A DNA stretch of 64,000 nucleotides, from the IMG/VR virus record IMGVR_UViG_3300009551_000049, positions 1,196-65,195 of that record; one strand, 5' to 3'. Every line of letters begins with the position of its first letter. Positions within the stretch are counted from its first letter, which is position 1. Source of the stretch: a virus (Duplodnaviria; Caudoviricetes). The notes below the pieces were generated by a model, which saw nothing but the letters and a program-made list of their open reading frames with translations, did no database searches and was not told where the DNA came from. This document shows positions 3,677 through 38,011 of the stretch, piece by piece. The position numbers and the translations under genes are program-made.

Positions 3677-3837
3677 GCAGAATGCCTATATTAAAAAATA
3701 CCTGCGTCGTCCGCTGCGAGTGCGGATGCAAGCGCGATGTACGAACCAGTCCGCGCTGGCTAAAGAGCGGCAGGCATGTTTTCTTTGAGAAAGCCTGCAA
3801 TATAAGATTCAATAGTGAACATCCGAACAAGCCATAA
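3673..3837 (+). CDS. 54-aa Cys-rich protein MSRMPILKNTCVVRCECGCKRDVRTS..., possible Zn ribbon
   Basis: Translated by hand. ATGA overlap upstream and TAATG overlap downstream; fills the gap exactly. Confidence 0.65.
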   Translation: MSRMPILKNTCVVRCECGCKRDVRTSPRWLKSGRHVFFEKACNIRFNSEHPNKP

Positions 3838-6800
3838 TGATTAAGTGTCCTCCAAAAAATTACGCTTTCGGCCTGCTCAAAAGCGGCCTCGGTGAAGCCC
3901 GCGCCCACATCGCCTACCAACGCAATGGATTTGAAGTGCCTGAAATTGAGAAGGCGTTGGACTTGCTTGGAATGGACAAAGAGGCATGGCGCGACAGCAA
4001 AGGCCGCACACTGCATCAGGTGAAAGCTCTGAACGCTACTGCTAAAACTGTTCGTGAATCTGGGGGGCCGATTCTTCCAAAATCTGAACCATCCGCACCT
4101 TCTGGAATTGCCCCAGAATCAAAAGTGCGCGTAGGCAAAGACCCGAGGCTTCACACCGTGGTTCGGGAGCTTCCAAAGTCACAAGGCGACCTGCCGGACG
4201 AGAAATTTTATGAAGTCAGAAACGACAAAACCGGAGAAGTCCAGACGGTCGAATCGAAAGACATTACGCCCGTCACTGAGCGGACTGCTGCTGAAAAATC
4301 TGCTGTTAAGCCCGATAGCCTTGACGACCAATTGCGGTCATACAAGCTCGACCCATCAGCATTCCCAGACGCCGCCAGCAAGCGGGCCGCACTGAAGCGG
4401 GCGAAAGCCACATCCGAACCGGCGGCAAATCTCGGAGAAGGCTTGCCCGCCGGTCAAGGTTCATCTGATGCCCAGATACTTGAATCAATCAAGGGCGAGC
4501 CTACTCACGGATTCAGGGTCAATGTCATCTCGCGGGATCAGGCCGAACAAATCACCAGCAGGCCCGAGGCGCGCGGCTACGGCGGTTTCTTTGGTAACGG
4601 CGAAATCTATTTCGTGCGCGAGAACGTGAACACGAAAAATCCCGAGCTGGTACGCCAGTTGTTACGGGAGGAAATCGGCCACGGACTTTTACGCACCGAG
4701 AACGGGGCTAAATTGCTGGAAGAAGTCTTTGGCCGCGCCCGCCGTGAATTGACGGAGGCTGAAAAGGCTCCGCTCCGTGCCGCTGGTTACAAAGAGCATC
4801 AGTTGCTTGACGAGTTCATTGCCAAGTCAGCGCGGGAGAACCGGCCTTGGTGGTCGGAGGTCATTCTTACCATCAAGTCTTGGCTGGCCAAGCTCGGGTT
4901 GAATCTTTCCAACGAAGATGCCGCCCGCTTGCTGCTACGTCGAATCAAGGAAAATCAATCCAGTCAAATTGAAGGCGTCGACATTGCACCGGGCCAGCCC
5001 GTGCCACCGGACGAAGCCTTGGATGAAGAAAAACCACCCACGATCCAGATTGCCGGTCGCACCTATGTTGTCCCAGATGAAACGCTGATTGCGTCCAAGT
5101 TCACACCTGAACAGATTGAAGACGGCAAGAAACGCGCAACCGCCGTTGCCGCTAGTCTTAAACTTCCGGGCAACGTGGATACGCGCGCAGACGGCTCGCT
5201 TTTCAACGTGGACGGCGACTCCAATGTTGGCAGCGATGGCAAGCCGGTTTTCGACTATTCCACCGAAGTCAGCAGGCTGCGCGATGAGCTTGTCAAAGCG
5301 CATCAGGCCAACGACGAGGTTTTGACCGCCCAGTTGGTCAAGCTTATCAATTACAACCACGATGAGTGGCCAAAGCTAGTGGCCAAGCCGCTGGCGGATG
5401 AATTGAGGGGGCTGGCGGCGGCAAAGTCGAGCTTCTATGGCCAAATGTTGCGGATGATAAAGGGCGCGGCGGTGTCGAAAGACCTGCGCTCCATCGCCCG
5501 TAATCTTGATTTCTCACTGAAGCGTCTTTACTCCGCCAATTTCGGGGGCGATGCGTATGAGACTTTTGTAAGCCGTATCATACAAAACTTTCGTGACTAT
5601 TTCACGCCCGAGCAGTTGGACAAATTTGGCACCGACAATCCCAATCTGGTGGAACAGGTTGAATTGCTGGCCGCGACCGCACGGGCGGAAACTGCGAACC
5701 GGCTGTACCGCCAGATTCAGTCCAAGCTGAACCCTAAGAATATCACGCCCGCCAAGCTCGAAAAAAATGCCATCGCGCGCGAGGAATTCGAGGCCTTGAT
5801 TCAGCAGCTTGAAAAAATCGGCGTGGACATCCCCGAGAAAAAGAACGCGAAGATGTCCGCGCGCGAAAAACTGCTGTTGCTGGTCAAAGACAAAACCATC
5901 GAGAAGGTGAATGCCGATGTCGAAGCGGCCATCAAATACGGTTTGAGCGAAGCGGGCAAACAGGCTGCTCGCAATGAACTGCTGGGCAACAAGGCCGCTA
6001 TCGAGGAGCTGGATGCGCGCTACCTTGCGGGCGAGGAACCGACGCCAGAGCAGATTACCAAGGGTCTTGAGTTACAGGCTTTCCGTGGCATCAAAGGGCT
6101 GCGCGATACATGGCTTAGTTATGATCCGGTGACGACCAAGCTGGTACAGGACATTGTTAAGGGCGATTTCAAGGGCGTTCGTTTCGGCATTCCGAAAAAG
6201 CAGCCGGTGGACACCCGTTTGAGCCTGACGGAACTGGCCAAGCAGCCGGATGCCGAGATTACCCGCGTTCTGGATGCGTACCTGAAGAACATCGAGGACA
6301 ATCTGGACATCGCGGGCGCATCGCCGGAAACACGCCAGCGCATCCGTGACACGGTTCAAAAACAGGTTGCCGACCAGATTGAAAACGTCATCCGCCCCAA
6401 GGTGCGCGACATCATGTTTAGCGCGCCCAAGGAAAAAGGCTCGGCCAAGACTGACGAGCAAAAGCTGGCGGAGCAAATCAACGCCGGGTTGTTCAAGGAT
6501 GAACGGCTGAAGGTACCGGAGATGGTTGAGCACGTGGCGGGCAAGAGCCTTGTCAAAAAATTAACGCCGAAAGTTGGCGATTTGGCACGGGTTATTCTGG
6601 ATACGCCATCGTTCAAGCAGGCGGACATGGAGAAGCAGATTGCCGACAAGGTTGTTTCCGACCTCGGAGTTACACCCGATCAGGCTGAGAATCTTGCCAA
6701 AGTCATTTACGCTTCGCTGAAGCCGAAGATTACCGAGGCCCGCGCTGCCGCCCAAGAAAAAGCGGTGAAGTCGATGACACCGCGTGAGCAGGCGGTGATT

Positions 6801-9362
6801 CCAAAGACGGATACAAAGCTGTGGGACAACATCACCCAGTTTTTCAACGCCGGGGGCAAGGACTACGAGGAACTGCTGAAGCGTGTTGCCGTCATTCGCG
6901 GTCTGCCCGTGCCATCCGCTGTTGAGATGGCCAAAATGAAGGCTTTGGCGGACAAAATCGACCGCCTCACAAATTTAAGCCCCGATGCGGAGGAAAAAAT
7001 CCGCAACGATTCCAGCTTGAATGATGCGGAAAAGGCACAGGCGATTGATAACGAGCGCAACAAAATCGAGGCCATCAACGCCTCTGAAATTGGACGCGCC
7101 ACCCGTCAAATGGCCGTGGAATGGGCGAAGTTCTCGAAGCCGTACAACTGGCTTCAAAAGCGCAATATCGCCGATGCCGGATACGAGCTGGCCACGGCCA
7201 ACCTGCTGGCAAAATTCGGATTCCCCATCCGGCTGGCAACGCATATCACGACCCAGTTGCTTGTCAGGACGCCCATTCGTCCGCTGGCCGTAGCATTGGA
7301 ACAGTTTTATGCCGACCGTGCGGCGGGCAAGCAGACCGAATTTTTCTCTGACGCCTACAACGCTGTCAGGGAGACTTTTGACCAGACTTTCAAGGCCGTG
7401 CCGCAAGCCCTGCGGGCAGGCCGGTCACAGTTGACCGCGCGCGGCGAAGTAAACTCGTCGCGGCTAGCGGCGGGTGTCAACGCACTGGAACGCATGGCGA
7501 CACAGGCCAAGGAATACGCGAAGAAGGGCGATTATGTCCGGGCGACCATGCTTTATACCGTGGCCTCGCTGCGGATGGCCCAGCGTGTTGTCAGCGGCAT
7601 CGACGCTTTTCAGGGCGAGTTCGTCGAGATGCAGGAATTGAGGCATCAAATTTTCATCGAACTGGCCAAGCAGGGAAAATCCCGCGCGGAAATCGAGATG
7701 CAGATGGAAAACATCTTCGGCAGCATGGCTGCGGACTGGGCCATTGCACTGGCCGATGCCCGCCGTGGATTTGACGAGTTCGACATCCTGAAGGACTCCA
7801 AAAACTTCGTGCGCGAACAGGCGTTGACCGAGGCGGCTGACCGGCTGTTGAAAGAGCGGATGTATCAAAAGGCCGAACTGATGGGTTTGCCCTCGGACTC
7901 GATGCGGGCGTACATCCTGCGACAGCGCATGGCGGAGGCTTGGCAGACGGCGACAAAGACAGGGTTGGGCGGTGCGCTCACCAAGGGCATGGTAGCCGCC
8001 CGTCAGTTTGCAACCGAAAAAGGCCTGCCATTCCTGCCTGTGGAATTCTCTAACGCGATTGGCGCGGGTGTGAATTATCACCTGATGCTCACCCCGTTCT
8101 ACAAGCTCGCGCTGGGCAAGGTCGATGCCGCCGGGGTCGGCGAGTCCGCTTGGAACGAAACCCGGCTGGATCGGACAAACCGGCAGCTCATGGCCCTTGC
8201 CGGAACCATGCTGGGGGGCACGATGGCCGCGCTGGTGCTATCCGGCCAGCTCCGGGTGCAACTCCACAGCCCAACGGACAAGAAAGAGCGCGAGAAGTTT
8301 ATTGCCGAGGGCCACAAGGTCGGTACGGTCGAATGGATGCTGCCGGATGGCAACTTCATACCCTTCAGCCTCACCGTGGGGCCGTTCTCGCTCGTTTCGC
8401 CGTATCTGGCGGCAGCGGGCCAAACCGTGCATCTGGTACAGTCACGGGAGAAGAAGCAGGCCGCTCTGGACGCGCAGGCGGCTAAGACCGGCCTTCCAGC
8501 GGGCAAGATAGACCCTGTGACAGTAACGGACGTTCTGGGCGTGGCCGGGCAGGCTGTATGGGCCTCCCTGCTTGGTGGCTCGACCGCCGGGGGCTTGGTG
8601 TCGTCTTACTCCGAATTCCAGACTCCGAATGCTAATAAGGCGGTTTCCGCCACGATTGCCCCGCTCCTGCCGTACATTCCCATGCTTCAGGAGGTATCGC
8701 GCATGATTGGCGTGGGGCTGGACTCCAAGACCGCCACGGTCTTTGACTACCTGCTTCCGCTGCCAACGTCAGGCGCACGGGCCATCAACGCGCTGGGCGA
8801 CCCTGTACGAACGCCGGATGCTATCCAGAGAGTCATTCAGGCGATTACTGCCGGAACATACCCCGGCATCGTTTCCAGCAAACCGGACGAATCGTATGAT
8901 TATGAGACACGCTCGGCATATTCTGCCCTGCTGGCCACCAGATACGCCCCGCCGGAGATAAATCCGGCCAAAGGGTACGCTATCGGCGGCACCTTCAGGC
9001 CAATGACCCAGCCCGAGCTTGAGCAGTACACGGAATTGCGCGGGCAATACCTGAAAGAGAATCTGGCAGCACTCGGAGCCAGCGCGACCAAGCAACAGGT
9101 CAGGGCCGCGTATCAGCAGGCCAACGCGCAGGCTTTGACTGACATGGGTATCACCACCGCGCGATCCACGGCGGCGACCTCTGGGACTGCTGCCGCGGCA
9201 CCCGCCGGACAGCGCAGGCTGTCCCTTGGCCGGAGCCGGTCGAGCGGGCTGAAAGTCAGCCTAAAAAAACTTCACCGCACAAAAATTCGCAGACCGCGTT
9301 CACTTCGCCTGCGTAGCTCCAAAAAATCGCGCCTGCATCGTCCAAAATTAAGCTTTACATGA
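3837..9362 (+). CDS. Giant (1841 aa) virion cargo/ejection or large polyvalent protein
   Basis: Very long, helical and Ala-rich. Degenerate zincin segment LLREEIGHGLL...LLDEFIAK...WWSEV; hydrophobic segments near the C-terminus; Arg/Lys/Ser-rich tail. Confidence 0.7.
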   Translation: MIKCPPKNYAFGLLKSGLGEARAHIAYQRNGFEVPEIEKALDLLGMDKEAWRDSKGRTLHQVKALNATAKTVRESGGPILPKSEPSAPSGIAPESKVRVGKDPRLHTVVRELPKSQGDLPDEKFYEVRNDKTGEVQTVESKDITPVTERTAAEKSAVKPDSLDDQLRSYKLDPSAFPDAASKRAALKRAKATSEPAANLGEGLPAGQGSSDAQILESIKGEPTHGFRVNVISRDQAEQITSRPEARGYGGFFGNGEIYFVRENVNTKNPELVRQLLREEIGHGLLRTENGAKLLEEVFGRARRELTEAEKAPLRAAGYKEHQLLDEFIAKSARENRPWWSEVILTIKSWLAKLGLNLSNEDAARLLLRRIKENQSSQIEGVDIAPGQPVPPDEALDEEKPPTIQIAGRTYVVPDETLIASKFTPEQIEDGKKRATAVAASLKLPGNVDTRADGSLFNVDGDSNVGSDGKPVFDYSTEVSRLRDELVKAHQANDEVLTAQLVKLINYNHDEWPKLVAKPLADELRGLAAAKSSFYGQMLRMIKGAAVSKDLRSIARNLDFSLKRLYSANFGGDAYETFVSRIIQNFRDYFTPEQLDKFGTDNPNLVEQVELLAATARAETANRLYRQIQSKLNPKNITPAKLEKNAIAREEFEALIQQLEKIGVDIPEKKNAKMSAREKLLLLVKDKTIEKVNADVEAAIKYGLSEAGKQAARNELLGNKAAIEELDARYLAGEEPTPEQITKGLELQAFRGIKGLRDTWLSYDPVTTKLVQDIVKGDFKGVRFGIPKKQPVDTRLSLTELAKQPDAEITRVLDAYLKNIEDNLDIAGASPETRQRIRDTVQKQVADQIENVIRPKVRDIMFSAPKEKGSAKTDEQKLAEQINAGLFKDERLKVPEMVEHVAGKSLVKKLTPKVGDLARVILDTPSFKQADMEKQIADKVVSDLGVTPDQAENLAKVIYASLKPKITEARAAAQEKAVKSMTPREQAVIPKTDTKLWDNITQFFNAGGKDYEELLKRVAVIRGLPVPSAVEMAKMKALADKIDRLTNLSPDAEEKIRNDSSLNDAEKAQAIDNERNKIEAINASEIGRATRQMAVEWAKFSKPYNWLQKRNIADAGYELATANLLAKFGFPIRLATHITTQLLVRTPIRPLAVALEQFYADRAAGKQTEFFSDAYNAVRETFDQTFKAVPQALRAGRSQLTARGEVNSSRLAAGVNALERMATQAKEYAKKGDYVRATMLYTVASLRMAQRVVSGIDAFQGEFVEMQELRHQIFIELAKQGKSRAEIEMQMENIFGSMAADWAIALADARRGFDEFDILKDSKNFVREQALTEAADRLLKERMYQKAELMGLPSDSMRAYILRQRMAEAWQTATKTGLGGALTKGMVAARQFATEKGLPFLPVEFSNAIGAGVNYHLMLTPFYKLALGKVDAAGVGESAWNETRLDRTNRQLMALAGTMLGGTMAALVLSGQLRVQLHSPTDKKEREKFIAEGHKVGTVEWMLPDGNFIPFSLTVGPFSLVSPYLAAAGQTVHLVQSREKKQAALDAQAAKTGLPAGKIDPVTVTDVLGVAGQAVWASLLGGSTAGGLVSSYSEFQTPNANKAVSATIAPLLPYIPMLQEVSRMIGVGLDSKTATVFDYLLPLPTSGARAINALGDPVRTPDAIQRVIQAITAGTYPGIVSSKPDESYDYETRSAYSALLATRYAPPEINPAKGYAIGGTFRPMTQPELEQYTELRGQYLKENLAALGASATKQQVRAAYQQANAQALTDMGITTARSTAATSGTAAAAPAGQRRLSLGRSRSSGLKVSLKKLHRTKIRRPRSLRLRSSKKSRLHRPKLSFT

Positions 9363-9383
9363 CCGTGCAACTTTTGGCATGGT
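9352..9383 (+). promoter_or_regulatory. Putative promoter for the RNA array (TTTACA ... TGGCATGGT)
   Basis: TGGCAYGGT at 9375-9383 lies within the imperfect palindrome ACCGTGCAACTTTTGGCATGGT; the same motif precedes four other starts. Confidence 0.5.
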
Positions 9384-9387
9384 TGAA

Positions 9388-9462
9388 GCGTGGCCCGAAT
9401 AACGGAGCGTTACCGTAACTACGAAGTCTTTTGGATGGAGTGTGCAAGCGCAGAGGCCACGT
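9388..9462 (+). ncRNA. Structured ~75-nt element 1 (closed multi-stem, no CCA)
   Basis: GCGTGGCC (9388-9395) pairs with GGCCACGT (9455-9462). Internal hairpins ACGG-AGCGTTA-CCGT and GTGT-GCAA-GCGC. Confidence 0.4.
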
Positions 9463-9463
9463 T

Positions 9464-9541
9464 GTAAGCGTAGGAAAGTCTGGTTAATCCGCCGCGTTTG
9501 GGACGCGGAAACCGCAGGTTCAAATCCTGCCGCTTGCACCA
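9464..9541 (+). tRNA. tRNA-Pro(UGG)
   Basis: Acceptor GTAAGCG/CGCTTGC, anticodon arm CCGCG-TTTGGGA-CGCGG, T arm GCAGG-TTCAAAT-CCTGC, encoded ACCA. Confidence 0.93.
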
Positions 9542-9549
9542 ATTTTAAC

Positions 9550-9684
9550 CGGGGGATAGTGTAAGAAGTTTGCGAGATAGACAGCGTTGTTCTAGAGCAA
9601 TGTTGGAACGGCGTGAAATCCTCGACTTACAAGCACACACGGCTTTGGGCCGTAAAGTTACGTGAAAATCGTATCCTCCGACCA
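9550..9684 (+). ncRNA. tRNA-like RNA (135 nt) with a ~65-nt structured insertion in the D-loop; anticodon loop CTTTGGG
   Basis: Acceptor CGGGGGA/TCCTCCG + ACCA; D stem GTGT/GCAC; anticodon stem (C)ACGG/CCGT(A); T arm TACG-TGAAAAT-CGTA. Confidence 0.7.
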
Positions 9685-9713
9685 ATTTGAACGCATCGGT
9701 ATCCGGGCGTTCA

Positions 9714-9787
9714 TGGGGCGGACAGAGCGCGGAAGACGCCTTGGAAAACAAGCAGGGCAGTCACGGGCTTGCTAGTTGCCCCGACCA
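9714..9787 (+). ncRNA. 74-nt tRNA-sized element with acceptor stem and ACCA end but no canonical T or anticodon arm
   Basis: TGGGGCG/TGCCCCG + ACCA; internal hairpins GCG-CGGAAGA-CGC and CTTG-GAAAA-CAAG; preceded by hairpin TGAACGC/GCGTTCA (9688-9713). Confidence 0.5.
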
Positions 9788-9792
9788 ATTTT

Positions 9793-9867
9793 GCGGGTGT
9801 AGTTCAGTGGCTAGAACATCTGTTTTCCAAACAGAGTACGGCAGTTCAATTCTGCTCACCCGCTCCA
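9793..9867 (+). tRNA. tRNA-Gly(UCC)
   Basis: GCGGGTG/CACCCGC, anticodon arm TCTGT-TTTCCAA-ACAGA, T loop TTCAATT, U73 + CCA. Confidence 0.93.
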
Positions 9868-9873
9868 GATTTA

Positions 9874-9978
9874 TAGGACGGTACGACGAGCCTTATCAGC
9901 TTGCACGACCGCCCTTGGGTGAAACGAGATGTGGATTGAGGCGTGATTGCCGAAATGAAGCTGAACACAGTAGCCCTA
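9874..9978 (+). ncRNA. Structured ~105-nt element between tRNA-Gly and tRNA-CAU
   Basis: TCAGCTT (9896-9902) pairs with AAGCTGA (9958-9964); TAGG/CCTA outer stem; internal hairpins CGCC-CTTG-GGTG and GGC-GTGATT-GCC. Confidence 0.4.
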
Positions 9979-9986
9979 AATTTAAA

Positions 9987-10062
9987 TGGCTTGTAGCTCA
10001 ATGGTTAGAGCAGGACACTCATAATGTCTTGGTTCTTGGTTCGAGTCCAAGCAGGCCAACCA
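9987..10062 (+). tRNA. tRNA-CAU, probably Ile2 (lysidine type) rather than Met
   Basis: TGGCTTG/CAGGCCA, anticodon arm GGACA-CTCATAA-TGTCT, T loop TTCGAGT, ACCA. The overall sequence resembles the ileX-type tRNA. Confidence 0.88.
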
Positions 10063-10070
10063 GTTTTAAT

Positions 10071-10163
10071 GCGAGTAGAGGCGATTAGAAGCGCGACGGC
10101 TTGCAAGACCCGTATTCCGGGGATACTCCGTCAAATCGGGTGCAAATCCCGACACTCGCACCA
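10071..10163 (+). ncRNA. tRNA-like RNA (93 nt) with an aberrant or branched anticodon arm
   Basis: Acceptor GCGAGT/ACTCGC + ACCA; T arm TCGGG-TGCAAAT-CCCGA; D-like GCG-ATTAGAAG-CGC; GACGG/CCGTC encloses 28 nt (CTTGCAAG...GTATTCCGGGGATAC). Confidence 0.65.
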
Positions 10164-10170
10164 ATTTTAA

Positions 10171-10557
10171 ATGAGTCAACACGACCCAGACGGGCCAAAG
10201 AACCTCGGAAAACTTTTCGGGGACATGAATGACTACATCCGGCAGCATAGTCGTGGCGAGCTTCCGGCGCAGAAGGCCAAGGCTTCAGAAAAGCCGGTCA
10301 TGCCCCACAATGTCTGCCGCGTTTGCAACAAGCCTTTCAACCATTCCCGCATTATCGTTGAGCGACCGATTGTGACCGACCCGTGCCCGCAGTGTAACAC
10401 CCTGCTGAAAGATGGATTCACCGCGCTTACCGATGGCTCGCGGTTTGCGTTTGTAAAGATGCCGCCCACCTGTGCCGACATGGTTGGAATGATTGTTGAC
10501 CTGAGCAAAGAGGAAATGGATCAGGTCGAGAAAAAGAAAAATGAAAAGACAAGCTGA
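10171..10557 (+). CDS. Zn-finger protein (CRVC...CPQC)
   Basis: Two CxxC pairs; follows the RNA array. Confidence 0.7.
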   Translation: MSQHDPDGPKNLGKLFGDMNDYIRQHSRGELPAQKAKASEKPVMPHNVCRVCNKPFNHSRIIVERPIVTDPCPQCNTLLKDGFTALTDGSRFAFVKMPPTCADMVGMIVDLSKEEMDQVEKKKNEKTS

Positions 10558-10897
10558 TGTTCTGAAATGGGCACCCCCGTTTTTGGTTTATGCCCTCGCG
10601 CGCGACGAAAAAGGACGCGGACTGACCGCCGACCAAATCGCCGCCAGCGCGGGCATGTCAAAACGCAATGTGGTGCGTATCTCGCAAATGCTGAGTTGGG
10701 ACGCCGTGAAGGCTGGCACCATCGAGGCGTTCATGCGCGGGTGTAATTTCACGGCTGCTAAACAGGTCGATTACATCCGCAAGACCACTGGCACGAACAG
10801 AAAGTTTTCCCACCTTTCAAAGCTGCGGATGAAAAGTTTTGAGGAACGCATTGTGGCCTTTAATGTGTTGCATGAATCGAAGAAAGCCAAAAAATAA
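10541..10897 (+). CDS. Helix-turn-helix protein
   Basis: GLTADQIAASAGMSKRNVVRI is an HTH pattern. Confidence 0.65.
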   Translation: MKRQADVLKWAPPFLVYALARDEKGRGLTADQIAASAGMSKRNVVRISQMLSWDAVKAGTIEAFMRGCNFTAAKQVDYIRKTTGTNRKFSHLSKLRMKSFEERIVAFNVLHESKKAKK

Positions 10898-10899
10898 CC

Positions 10900-11430
10900 A
10901 TGAACCAGAAAGACAAGCCGGTTAAATACTGGGTCACAATTTCGATGATCGAAGGCTATATCGCAATGTGGTCAGTTCGCCAATCCCCATACCACCAGCC
11001 GGATTACCTGCTTGGCGTCATAAAACAATTTCGTGATTCGGTAAGGCCATTATTTGACGCAAATGAAATGCTCCAGATAAGCAGGACTGACTTACGGGTT
11101 TTGCTAAACAGCCACCTTCTGACCCAGCGGCAAGTCCAGCTTTGGAACGAACGTAAAAACGGTAACCAAAATCCGATTGGGTTCGTGTCGCGTTACGACA
11201 GGCCTGACCCAGACAATGATTTCATCGACCTCCACGCGCTTTCAAGAAACATTGAAATGGGAGTTTTCCGTGAATGTGAGCACGATGCTATTTCTGACCA
11301 CAAAATAACCCAAGATTGGAGACGTGGTTGGCTTTCAAGAAAGCTGTTCCGGCTCAAGCAGCGAATTTTCAAGACATCAACGCCATCACCCGAAAGTCCA
11401 TCTTGTACCAGTGCGTGTCGCCCCCAATAG
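10900..11430 (+). CDS. Hypothetical protein
   Basis: 176-aa ORF in the operon; converges on and overlaps the tail gene. Confidence 0.55.
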   Translation: MNQKDKPVKYWVTISMIEGYIAMWSVRQSPYHQPDYLLGVIKQFRDSVRPLFDANEMLQISRTDLRVLLNSHLLTQRQVQLWNERKNGNQNPIGFVSRYDRPDPDNDFIDLHALSRNIEMGVFRECEHDAISDHKITQDWRRGWLSRKLFRLKQRIFKTSTPSPESPSCTSACRPQ

Positions 11431-19313: not shown

Positions 19314-19342
19314 ACCGTGCCAAAAGTTGCACGGTTTGTCCA
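19314..19342 (-). promoter_or_regulatory. TGGACA...TGGCACGGT putative promoter with palindrome ACCGTGC-N8-GCACGGT
   Basis: 22-mer nearly identical to the one at 9362-9383. Confidence 0.55.
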
Positions 19343-35041: not shown

Positions 35042-38011
35042 GTGGAGACTTCCCAATACCTATTAAAACCCCTGAATGAAAAAGGCAGGGCTTTATTATC
35101 CCTGTGCAAGAAAAAGCGGCTGGTTTTGGCGACCGGCACAAGGCTCAGTACGAAGTGCGTTTCGCCAGATACGCTCATTTGCACAGAAGACGGCATTGTT
35201 TCAATAGGGGGTTTGGCAAAATGTGCCGAAGGGGAATCCGTCTCAATTTCTAAAAAAGTCCTCTCATTCAATCCAAAGACGAACCAGATTACAAAATCAG
35301 ACGCCATTGAGTTTTATAGCTCTGGGTTCAGAACCGCGTTAAAAATCAAAACTGTGTTGGGTTATGAACTAATATGCTCTCAAGAACACCCAATTTGGTC
35401 TGAATTTAATGGCGAAATGAAATTCAGGACTTCCACCGAAATTAAAGAGATTTTGATGGCTGGTGGAAAGGTCTGGCTGCCGCTATCAAAAAACGATCAG
35501 TACCCGGAGGTTGAAAAATTCAAGTCTGTTGAAATCGAGTGGTTGAACAGAAACGACCACTACAAAGTCAGGGCCATGCAAAGGATACAGAAGGCGATAG
35601 ATGGGGGTGCTAAAAGCATCTCACAGATTATGAAGTCGGCCAAGTCCGCGCTTCCAACAGTTCGCGCCTACCTGAACAATCCAAATCATACAATCCATAG
35701 CAGGCAGTCAATCCTTATTGATGACGACATGGCTTATTTTATCGGCCTGCTGGTCGGAGATGGTTGCTATACAAAAAAAGTTCTTGAGGCAGCAGCTATC
35801 GGTTTTTCGTCAAACGACCAATTCTTGATTGATTTTGTAAAAAAGATTTCGGAGTCGAGATTTAAAAACACTACTTTCAGCCATCGCACAGGGTGCGATT
35901 GGGTCATCAAATCAGCCCCACTCAAGGCATTGTTAAAAATTTCCGGCATGGCTGGAAATTATTCGCATGAAAAGTTTGTTCCAGATTTTGTGTTTGGGTC
36001 ACCCAAGTCCGTTGTCCGCGCATTCTTGCAGGGGCTTTTTGATACAGATGGAACGGTTTGTAAAAATGGTCAACCAAGATACTGCTCAACGAGCGAGCGT
36101 TTGGCCAAACAAGTTCAAGACCTTTTGCTTTATTTAGGCGTTAGAAGTTCAAGGGTTTTTAGCAGAAATAACTTTAAGGGTGCTTGGATTTTGTCCGTTC
36201 TGATGGAGGACGAATTTGCATCCAAGGTCGGGTTCAGACTTGAGAGAAAACAGTTGAAACTTTTTACCCAAAAAAAGTTCAGCATGAGCCGACCTGCCTT
36301 CGCGCCTTCTTTACTCAAAGTGCTTGAGCAATTAAAAGATAACCGAAAATCTCGCGGAGTACCAAAGCTTCCGAGAATCGTTCATTTGAGAACGATTGGC
36401 GGGTTGTTGCGGCAAAATCTGGCGTTGTCGCACAAGCGAATAATGCCGTTCATGCAGGCTATAAGGTGCGAAACCGAGCCTTCATTTCAAGCGCATTGGA
36501 TCGGCGGGAATGTTTTCTGGAATCAAATTGAATCGTGTGAAAAAACCGAAAGTGAATTGGTTGACATTTATGTTCCAGAAACAAATTGCTTCATTGGAAA
36601 TGGATTTATCAACCACAACACAATGGGTTGTCTCCACGTCCTGTGTGACCACGCTTGGAATACGATGCTCGGCAACATCGTCCTCATCACCATCAGCCAG
36701 AGCGCGGGCATCAACAGCGGTGTATGGGAGCAACTCACGCAAATGGTAATCCCCGCCTTCGGACTTAAATACGCGAAAGACCCGTATAACCAAGGCGCGT
36801 CCAAAAAACCTTGCTGCGAAGTCTGGAACCGGCATGGTGGAAAAACAAAAATCATGCTCGAATCCCTCAAGGACGAAAAAGAAGTCGAGGAGCGTTTCAA
36901 AAACAAATCGTACTCGATGATTTTCGTGACCGAGCTGGACATCTTCAAATTTCAAAAGACATTCCTGACATGGGCGGCGGCTTTGCGTATGCCCCATCTC
37001 GGGCTAAACGAGCATCTGCTTTTGGCCGACTGCAATCCGGCGGATGAGGGCACCGCGCACTGGATTTACAAGATGTGGTACGAGCTTCGCATTGACCCCG
37101 ATTGCCGCCCTGAGCTGCGGGCGATACGCGACCAGCTTGGCCTGTTGGAATTCAACTTGGATGACAACAATTATTCGACCAAGGAGGAAATCGAACTCAT
37201 CAAATCGCAGTACGCGGACTCGACTGACCTGTATGACAGGTACATCAAGGGACTGTGGGTCACCGCGAGCGAGAACGCGCTTTTCAGGTCAGTATTTAAG
37301 GAGCAGATTCACATCATCGGCGACGTGGCCACCCGCACAAATCCCAGCCCGTCCATCCTGATTCCAGAGCCGGAGTGCTTCGAGTTGTACGGCGGCTGGG
37401 ACATGGGCGTTGTGAACAGCGCGTTTGTCGTCATCGAAAAGGTTGTGCGTAACGTGGGCGGAAGGTCGGTGCCGTTTTTCAAAATCCTTGATGAGCTGGT
37501 GTTGGTGGATCAGGATTTTTTGATGTCCGCATACGTCGAGGCCGTGATGGAAAAGATGAAGTTCTGGGAGGACTTCATCGGCAAGCCGGTGCAATGGACT
37601 CACTGGAGCGACCGGAGCGCGTTTGATTTTCACGACAAGCTGGCTGGCCGGTATGACCATCAGGAGGTTGCGGACGTGTCCGGCGGCAAGATTCAGTTGA
37701 TGGCCGCGATGGACGGACGGCGCACAAACGAAACCGTCAGGCAGCGCATCGACCTTTTCCGAAAGCTGCTTTTCCAGACCCGCGTATTTTTCTCAGCCGA
37801 AAAAACACCCATGTCGATTGAGATGTGCAAGTCGCTTAAAAAAGGGCGTGGCCAGTTTTCAACCATCCAGAAGGATTCCAAGCACAAGCACGTATTCGAC
37901 GCCATCACCTACGCCATCGCCACGGAATGTTCGGAGGAATTAAACCGCAACGTCATCGGGCAATTGCACCCGCAAACATCTGAGTCCGGTCTGGTCAGGG
38001 TCGAGCTATGA
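35042..38011 (+). CDS. terL: Terminase large subunit containing an intein
   Basis: Walker A-like GTRLSTK|T, Walker B MIFVTELD, DCNP coupling motif, nuclease GGWDMG and HKHVFDAITY. Confidence 0.85.
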   Translation: METSQYLLKPLNEKGRALLSLCKKKRLVLATGTRLSTKCVSPDTLICTEDGIVSIGGLAKCAEGESVSISKKVLSFNPKTNQITKSDAIEFYSSGFRTALKIKTVLGYELICSQEHPIWSEFNGEMKFRTSTEIKEILMAGGKVWLPLSKNDQYPEVEKFKSVEIEWLNRNDHYKVRAMQRIQKAIDGGAKSISQIMKSAKSALPTVRAYLNNPNHTIHSRQSILIDDDMAYFIGLLVGDGCYTKKVLEAAAIGFSSNDQFLIDFVKKISESRFKNTTFSHRTGCDWVIKSAPLKALLKISGMAGNYSHEKFVPDFVFGSPKSVVRAFLQGLFDTDGTVCKNGQPRYCSTSERLAKQVQDLLLYLGVRSSRVFSRNNFKGAWILSVLMEDEFASKVGFRLERKQLKLFTQKKFSMSRPAFAPSLLKVLEQLKDNRKSRGVPKLPRIVHLRTIGGLLRQNLALSHKRIMPFMQAIRCETEPSFQAHWIGGNVFWNQIESCEKTESELVDIYVPETNCFIGNGFINHNTMGCLHVLCDHAWNTMLGNIVLITISQSAGINSGVWEQLTQMVIPAFGLKYAKDPYNQGASKKPCCEVWNRHGGKTKIMLESLKDEKEVEERFKNKSYSMIFVTELDIFKFQKTFLTWAAALRMPHLGLNEHLLLADCNPADEGTAHWIYKMWYELRIDPDCRPELRAIRDQLGLLEFNLDDNNYSTKEEIELIKSQYADSTDLYDRYIKGLWVTASENALFRSVFKEQIHIIGDVATRTNPSPSILIPEPECFELYGGWDMGVVNSAFVVIEKVVRNVGGRSVPFFKILDELVLVDQDFLMSAYVEAVMEKMKFWEDFIGKPVQWTHWSDRSAFDFHDKLAGRYDHQEVADVSGGKIQLMAAMDGRRTNETVRQRIDLFRKLLFQTRVFFSAEKTPMSIEMCKSLKKGRGQFSTIQKDSKHKHVFDAITYAIATECSEELNRNVIGQLHPQTSESGLVRVEL
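35156..36619 (+). mobile_element. Intein (488 aa) with LAGLIDADG homing endonuclease, inserted in the terminase Walker A
   Basis: Starts CVSPDT; block B CSQEHPIW; FIGLLVGDG and FLQGLFDTDG; ends FIGNGFINHN followed by Thr+1; lower GC. Confidence 0.95.

Follow-up and report, generated by a model that had tools for sequence, protein, structure and literature searches.

A candidate stable RNA with a tRNA frame and a long D-position arm in the tRNA cluster of a tailed phage

Between two tRNA genes of a tailed phage lies a stretch of 135 nt, here called X1, that can be folded like a cloverleaf in which a long structured arm takes the place of the D loop. The locus raises the question of what such a sequence is: a tRNA with an intron, the remnant of a tRNA, a chance fold, or an RNA in its own right. 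The window analysed here, the whole stretch of 64,000 nt, covers nearly the whole of a 65,195-base IMG/VR virus record. The only sequencing run listed for the stretch is a DNA run, labelled as a rhizosphere metagenome, from which this DNA may have come; the listing has no RNA run. The genes of the window are those of a tailed phage of bacteria and include a DnaB helicase, a 5'-3' exonuclease, a virion protein and an intein with a LAGLIDADG endonuclease; the intein splicing domain and the endonuclease lie in a 989-aa ORF (35042-38011).

The tRNA cluster follows a 1841-aa ORF (3837-9362) on the + strand, in the order tRNA-Pro, X1, X2, tRNA-Gly, spacer, tRNA-Met and X3 (Table 1). Besides the three canonical tRNAs, it contains four stretches, between or after them, that are not named by any detector at default settings, namely X1, X2, the spacer and X3. 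ORFs across the cluster have no credible family, the best being a 23-residue phrog match over tRNA-Met, and a search for relatives of a neighbouring 128-aa ORF found none. The promoter-like motif upstream of the cluster contains GCAACTTTTGGCA; the window has this sequence twice in exact form, each time ahead of a gene block, the second copy lying at 19318-19334 on the minus strand. A scan of positions 9200-10400 with the sigma-70 consensus gave 0 sites, and no terminator-like site was found between the units of the cluster. Some 740 nt downstream of the cluster, at 10900-11430, a homologue of Tad5, an inhibitor of type I Thoeris, is encoded (Pfam E = 9.3e-30).

Table 1. Features of the tRNA cluster and parts of X1 (positions in the window)
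Feature	Position	Strand	Basis or remark
Promoter-like motif upstream of the cluster (TTTACA, 18 nt, CATGGT; TTTGG before CATGGT)	9354..9383	+	conserved in 4 relatives
tRNA-Pro(UGG), canonical, G1-C72	9464..9541	+	ARAGORN; Rfam tRNA 62.2 bits; sequence ends
X1, probable 135-nt tRNA-like unit ending ACCA	9550..9684	+	sequence, fold, closure statistics
Long D-position arm of X1 (predicted)	9559..9636	+	4-bp base, AAGU/ACUU, CGAG/CUCG, apical hairpin; probabilities 0.77-1.0
Anticodon-position hairpin of X1 (predicted), ACGGC-UUUGG-GCCGU	9639..9653	+	probability 0.85-0.94
T-position hairpin of X1 (predicted), UACG-UGAAAAU-CGUA, 2 nt shorter than a T arm	9659..9673	+	probability 0.23-0.65
X2, 5' hairpin and long hairpin closed by 8 bp, ending ACCA	9685..9788	+	MFE -47 kcal/mol, z = -3.97
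tRNA-Gly(UCC)	9793..9867	+	ARAGORN; Rfam
Unstructured spacer, possibly a decayed unit	9868..9986	+	z = -1.05; 3' end 77% like X3 end
tRNA-Met(CAU)	9987..10062	+	ARAGORN; Rfam
X3, sub-threshold tRNA-like unit with anticodon-loop insert of ~21 nt, ending ACCA	10071..10163	+	Rfam tRNA 18.9 bits
First downstream ORF	10171..10557	+	no terminator between ORF and cluster; homologues in relatives

Relatives of the phage were found through the 1841-aa protein and comprise three viral contigs and one metagenome contig. The promoter-like motif stands in the same place, upstream of the homologous operon, in all four of them and, as judged by eye, precedes the homologues of the first downstream ORF. The tRNA cluster is absent from this site in the four relatives, and 0 of the 3 full relative records contain a tRNA. 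The slot between the large gene and the homologue of ORF 10171 is empty in relatives or holds other cargo, and the tRNA cluster is thus accessory cargo in a variable slot. In relative L004 the slot (5549-6854) encodes a phage metallopeptidase and an Rv2179c-like 3'-5' exoribonuclease; in relative L005 (1718-2758) it encodes a 346-aa protein with a weak DHHA1 match.

With regard to X1 itself, the sequence and limits described in an earlier note agree with the DNA, and the predicted fold also bears out the cloverleaf-like topology proposed there, in which a large structured arm occupies the D position. RNAfold gives a four-way junction with an MFE of -43.5 kcal/mol, unchanged when X1 is folded inside the 781-nt presumed precursor instead of alone. 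The acceptor helix (9550-9557/9673-9680) has 8 bp with one G-U and pairing probabilities of 0.73-1.00, and is followed by ACCA at 9681-9684. One unpaired base separates this closing helix from the D-position arm, the base of which is a D-like stem of 4 bp, GUGU/GCAC (9559-9562/9633-9636, probability about 0.8). The stems AAGU/ACUU and CGAG/CUCG, both already drawn from the sequence alone, have ensemble probabilities of about 0.77 and of 0.82-0.93, respectively. The arm is capped by an apical hairpin of 12 bp (9584-9595/9603-9614), with five G-U pairs, the loop AGCAAUG and a probability of about 1.0. The 10-bp apical hairpin that had been suggested (9582-9591/9596-9605) can be drawn, but it has an ensemble probability of 0.00 and lies 4.9 kcal/mol above the 12-bp register. 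Five or six unpaired bases lie between the anticodon-position and T-position hairpins, the latter of which is weak, with 3-4 bp, and directly adjoins the 3' strand of the closing helix. The four cloverleaf helices, which the earlier note had considered placeable as acceptor, D stem, anticodon arm and short T arm, are thus all found in the right order and with near-right spacing, the T helix being the weak one (0.23-0.65). The proposed anticodon loop CTTTGGG is present in the sequence, but a loop of 7 nt requires the stem to be limited to 4 bp; with 5 bp the loop has 5 nt, and in the MFE structure it is closed to 3 nt.

The other unnamed stretches of the cluster show diverse structures. X2 is strongly folding, is not a cloverleaf, and its positions 9741-9750 are perfectly complementary to nucleotides 29-38 of tRNA-Gly (9821-9830), covering the whole anticodon loop; one such 10-nt match was seen in 861 nt, which by a rough estimate is near chance expectation. 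X3 remains below the 29-bit cutoff of the Rfam tRNA family and is called as tRNA-Ala(UGC) by ARAGORN only with -i -ps. Its insert of roughly 21 nt follows position 37 of the anticodon loop, and derivatives of X3 carrying deletions are called only at -ps90 or lower (12/260). X3 lacks the G3-U70 pair, and no bulge-helix-bulge was seen by eye; its T loop, UGCAAAU, has a G at position 55, as in X1. The spacer has no significant fold, and its last 22 nt resemble the end of X3, with CCTA in place of ACCA, so that from its sequence it may be a decayed unit.

Searches for homologues of X1 were extended to several collections. A blastn search with positions 9545-9792 against 50,697 phage records (E<=10) returned 3 matches of 23-29 nt, which were taken as noise. 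Scans of IMG/VR for exact patterns of X1, one 27-mer and two 18-mers, gave 0 matches each, as did scans with exact 25-mers from the tRNA-Pro and tRNA-Gly genes nearby; these collection scans find exact matches only and may omit near-identical records, and diverged homologues are outside their reach. A gapped scan of IMG/VR with the acceptor ends of X1 and a variable gap found 2 matches that were judged to be chance, in stretches without tRNAs and unlike X1. The gapped acceptor-end pattern had 0 matches at the length of X1 in 185,579 species genomes and one at the length of a tRNA, which is no tRNA. Within the window there are no other copies of the insert. In the one DNA run with the stretch, neither strain variants of X1 nor joints across it were found, and only the source contig spans X1. 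In all, these searches found no homologue of X1, and hence no covariation or other sign of selection.

Is there a discrete RNA at all? The fold could be a chance feature of leader or spacer sequence between two tRNA genes, and several figures agree with this view. X1 is a single sequence. It folds better than its shuffles (z = -2.98, with 0 of 200 as good), but this z is reached or exceeded by 7 of 110 random windows of the phage, and 1741 of 8391 phage windows of 135 nt (21%) have an MFE at or below that of X1. Moreover, a loose closure of 7 bp with at most two G-U before NCCA occurs 1.15 times per kb in the genome and would be expected 0.29 times in the 251-nt gap. With the features actually present, an 8-bp closure with at most one G-U followed by ACCA, the expectation in this gap is 0.010, for criteria that were picked after X1 had been seen. 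The strongest non-random feature of X1 is its 3' punctuation, ACCAATTT. This motif has 8 copies in the window, counting both strands, and 4 of the 8 are the 3' ends of tRNA-Pro, X1, X2 and X3, all on one strand and within 630 nt. X1 furthermore starts 8 nt past the CCA that ends tRNA-Pro, and the order and spacing of its four helices would also be difficult to reconcile with chance. The fold energy alone is insufficient, but the fold statistics, the expectation for the closure and the ACCAATTT punctuation together make it likely that X1 is a discrete tRNA-style unit, built and ended like its tRNA neighbours. The statistical support for the unit is moderate, and a chance origin appears quite improbable.

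If X1 is a unit, it could be a working tRNA for glutamine or proline or a frameshift suppressor, in which the D-loop insert is spliced out as an intron or kept during decoding. The acceptor end agrees with this: where a tRNA has a 7-bp stem, a discriminator and CCA, X1 has 8 bp, then A, then CCA, its C1-G72 and A73 fit the acceptor identity of ProRS, and its loop contains both UUG and UGG. The remaining arms do not. The T hairpin has 4 bp and the loop UGAAAAU, and the anticodon hairpin can be drawn with a stem of 5 bp and 5 nt in the loop, or of 4 bp and 7 nt. Known +1 suppressor tRNAs have an anticodon loop of 8 nt, a length that the loop of X1 never reaches. No match to X1 was found with the Rfam tRNA model (RF00005, family cutoff 29 bits) at E<=10 in a 1-kb search, nor any + strand call with ARAGORN on 9550-9684 from the default threshold down to 70%. 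An insertion alone does not hide a tRNA from the Rfam model, since the model gives 44.1 bits to a 116-nt tRNA of Aeromonas phage avDM6 that is unannotated and carries a large insertion. The latter tRNA (L014 3633-3748) is missed by ARAGORN and lies in a gap of that phage's tRNA cluster, where a 147-nt hairpin (L014 4027-4173, z = -5.1) is found as well.

Removal of the insert does not reveal a tRNA either. Single-segment deletions that leave 68-95 nt of X1 yield 1358 derivatives, and ARAGORN called 0 of them at the default, 95, 90, 85 and 80% thresholds. As positive controls, the window's three canonical tRNAs were given the X1 arm in their D loop; 271, 286 and 305 of the 1358 deletions recovered them. 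Of 40 random 135-nt windows used as controls, 5 had one or more calls at 80%. In the MFE structure the arm is joined through a symmetric 2x2 AA/AA internal loop and not through a bulge-helix-bulge, and no intron family of Rfam, including any group I signal, matches X1 at E<=10. Archaeal tRNA introns at non-canonical sites and bacterial group I tRNA introns share with X1 the extra sequence that interrupts a tRNA-like gene, but the insert of X1 is far below the size of a group I intron, its 'spliced' product is no tRNA, and the phage looks like one of bacteria (DnaB, 5'-3' exonuclease, Tad5). With no detector call, bulge-helix-bulge, group I signal or 8-nt loop, the earlier suggestions of an unusual intron and of a frameshift-type tRNA both lose their support. 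X1 would be unable to read codons, since the anticodon loop is too short and the T arm, with its loop UGAAAAU, is 2 nt short and non-canonical; it is thus probably not a decoding tRNA, and the view that it works as one is scarcely credible. Other known RNAs were considered as well. ARAGORN at default found no tmRNA, and Rfam at E<=10 lists neither tmRNA nor the Y-RNA-like YrlA for X1. Readings as SRP, 6S or a riboswitch had no Rfam matches. Mimicry of a CRISPR repeat by the apical hairpin, judged on known repeat sequences, was dropped, with no CRISPR-DR or tracrRNA match in Rfam at E<=10.

The resemblance to tRNA may nevertheless reflect ancestry. X1 has C1-G72, A73, U8-A9 and UUUGGG in its loop, the last of which is also found in the anticodon loop of the neighbouring tRNA-Pro. 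According to the accessible text of one source, G72 and A73 belong to the proline identity elements of bacteria, and in E. coli C1-G72 is a strong determinant (PMC9976931). Among 15 phage tRNAs compared, only the tRNA-Pro of T4 and of KaAlpha begin with C and end with G followed by A. The combination of C1-G72 and A73 with a loop that contains UGG suggests that X1 descends from a bacterial-type tRNA-Pro(UGG). X1 and bacterial tRNA-Pro(UGG) also have in common U8-A9, the UUUGGG loop, a variable region of 5 nt and CCA. X1 differs from it in that an arm of ~70 nt replaces the D loop, that the anticodon arm and the T arm have 15 nt each instead of 17, the latter without GTTC, and that Rfam and ARAGORN do not detect it. 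The T loop, UGAAAAU, fits the form U-G-N-R-A, which we take to be the consensus of T-loop motifs. The phage's own canonical tRNA-Pro(UGG) (9464-9541) has G1-C72, unlike the C1-G72 of bacterial tRNA-Pro and of X1.

Two readings of such a tRNA derivative have to be weighed. X1 could be a decaying pseudogene, a former copy of tRNA-Pro with an insertion and small deletions that is carried as inert spacer of the operon and has no role of its own. This would agree with its rejection by every tRNA detector and with an anticodon arm and a T arm that are each 2 nt below canonical size. X3 is degenerate too, and the adjacent spacer resembles a unit that has decayed further. The cluster is missing in all four relatives examined and so is dispensable for the phage group, and no conservation of X1 could be demonstrated. 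Decay accounts less well for the state of what is left. The acceptor helix is intact, with ACCA retained, and the good pairing of the inserted arm (0.77-1.0) is the reverse of what random decay would leave. Unlike the spacer (z = -1.05), X1 (z = -2.98) and X2 (z = -3.97) beat their shuffles, and T4 rnaC, discussed below, shows that the same layout can be conserved across genera. A pseudogene is the main alternative, if a rather doubtful one. The explanation that we favour, with roughly even chances of being correct, is that X1 gives a stable RNA which derives from a tRNA, does not decode and is excised by the tRNA-processing enzymes. It would be of the kind found in T4, new in sequence and probably separate in origin.

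According to this favoured explanation, X1 would be transcribed from the promoter-like site at ~9354-9383 within one precursor that contains tRNA-Pro, X1, X2, tRNA-Gly, the spacer, tRNA-Met, X3 and mRNA, and would be freed by the tRNA-processing enzymes of the host. On the 5' side, the 8-bp acceptor-like helix and ACCA would direct RNase P to cleave before C9550, and on the 3' side an endonuclease and trimming would act in the AAUUU spacer after CCA. X1 would then persist as a CCA-ended RNA of 135 nt, with the D loop replaced by an arm of roughly 75 nt.

A broader and unlikely proposal is that phage tRNA operons repeatedly evolve tRNA-framed 'display' RNAs, decoys or effectors in which the acceptor end is kept and one arm becomes an effector hairpin. 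The retained acceptor end would allow the host to process and protect such an RNA, and X1 with its D-position arm and tRNA-Pro acceptor identity, X2, and X3 with its anticodon-loop insert would be three of them in one operon, placed in a variable accessory slot directly upstream of the Tad5 homologue; T4 rnaC would be an independent case. They might bind a tRNA-directed host factor or serve as its decoy, for instance ProRS, RNase P or a defence enzyme that cleaves tRNAs or modifies CCA.

The favoured explanation of X1 rests on one sequence, and is therefore a lead rather than a result. If it holds, an unrelated soil phage would carry a sequence-unrelated RNA of the same layout as the T4 RNA discussed next, which would mean that the layout itself is under selection, and X1 would provide a second, independent system for studying the function of these RNAs.

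The closest known system is found in the tRNA cluster of T4, where rnaC (species 1, 139 nt) and rnaD (species 2, 119 nt) are annotated. Small stable non-tRNA RNAs from the T4 tRNA precursor have been known for decades: as far as the accessible text of the sources goes, rnaC is made from the same precursor as the tRNAs, a single transcript that gives rise to 8 tRNAs and the species I and II RNAs (PMC2330249), and the function of RNAC and RNAD is still given as unknown (PMC3014915, PMC9697503, PMC12685909). Homologues of rnaC were found by blastn in 748 phage records, from which five diverse copies (T4, IME523, KM16, KaAlpha and NM4.3) were aligned. RNAalifold predicts 46 pairs for this alignment, 19 of them with compensatory changes, and the consensus fold combines an acceptor-like closing stem with a D-position arm of ~74 nt, an anticodon-position hairpin of 10 bp and a T arm of canonical form. 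The large D-position arm on a tRNA frame that the earlier note described for X1 therefore has an analogue of the same layout, supported by covariation, in the T4 tRNA cluster. In Klebsiella phage KaAlpha an unannotated rnaC homologue lies between tRNA-Trp and tRNA-Gly (L009 324-471), and in most of 40 records among the matches listed rnaC is unannotated or overlaid by a 'hypothetical protein'. A search for rnaC-like RNAs in 6 other phage tRNA regions gave 0 matches at E<=0.01.

A covariance model built from the five-copy alignment was run with filters off on positions 9000-10600 of the window. It scores 19 bits on tRNA-Met, 11.6 bits on tRNA-Pro and 10.1 bits on X3, and since it also matches ordinary tRNAs, rnaC is itself tRNA-like. 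On X1 it finds fragments of 1.2 and 0.7 bits on the + strand and an 8.2-bit match on the wrong strand. The model thus does not match X1, which is not a member of the rnaC family. X1 and rnaC share no sequence or profile similarity, the rnaC model giving at most 1.2 bits, and a MAFFT alignment of both is meaningless. The T arm of rnaC is canonical (UUCGAAU), its closing stem has two U-U mismatches, and it ends in UACAA without an encoded CCA, whereas X1 has a degenerate T arm, a perfect closing stem and an encoded ACCA. Engineered 'tRNA scaffold' RNAs, in which the graft replaces the anticodon arm and the remainder is canonical, resemble X1 in that a foreign hairpin is set into a tRNA frame to have it processed and stabilised by the cell. 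In X1, by contrast, the D position carries the graft and the remaining parts are degenerate, and it is X3 that has an insert in the anticodon loop. X2, in turn, bears a loose resemblance to T4 rnaD, with a 5' hairpin and then a long hairpin closed next to ACCA. Judged by its predicted layout, X1 is a structural analogue, not a homologue, of T4 rnaC. Both lie inside a phage tRNA cluster, have similar lengths (139 and 135 nt) and form a four-way junction with an acceptor-like closing stem, a D-position arm of ~74-78 nt, a hairpin in the anticodon position and a T-position hairpin by the 3' strand.
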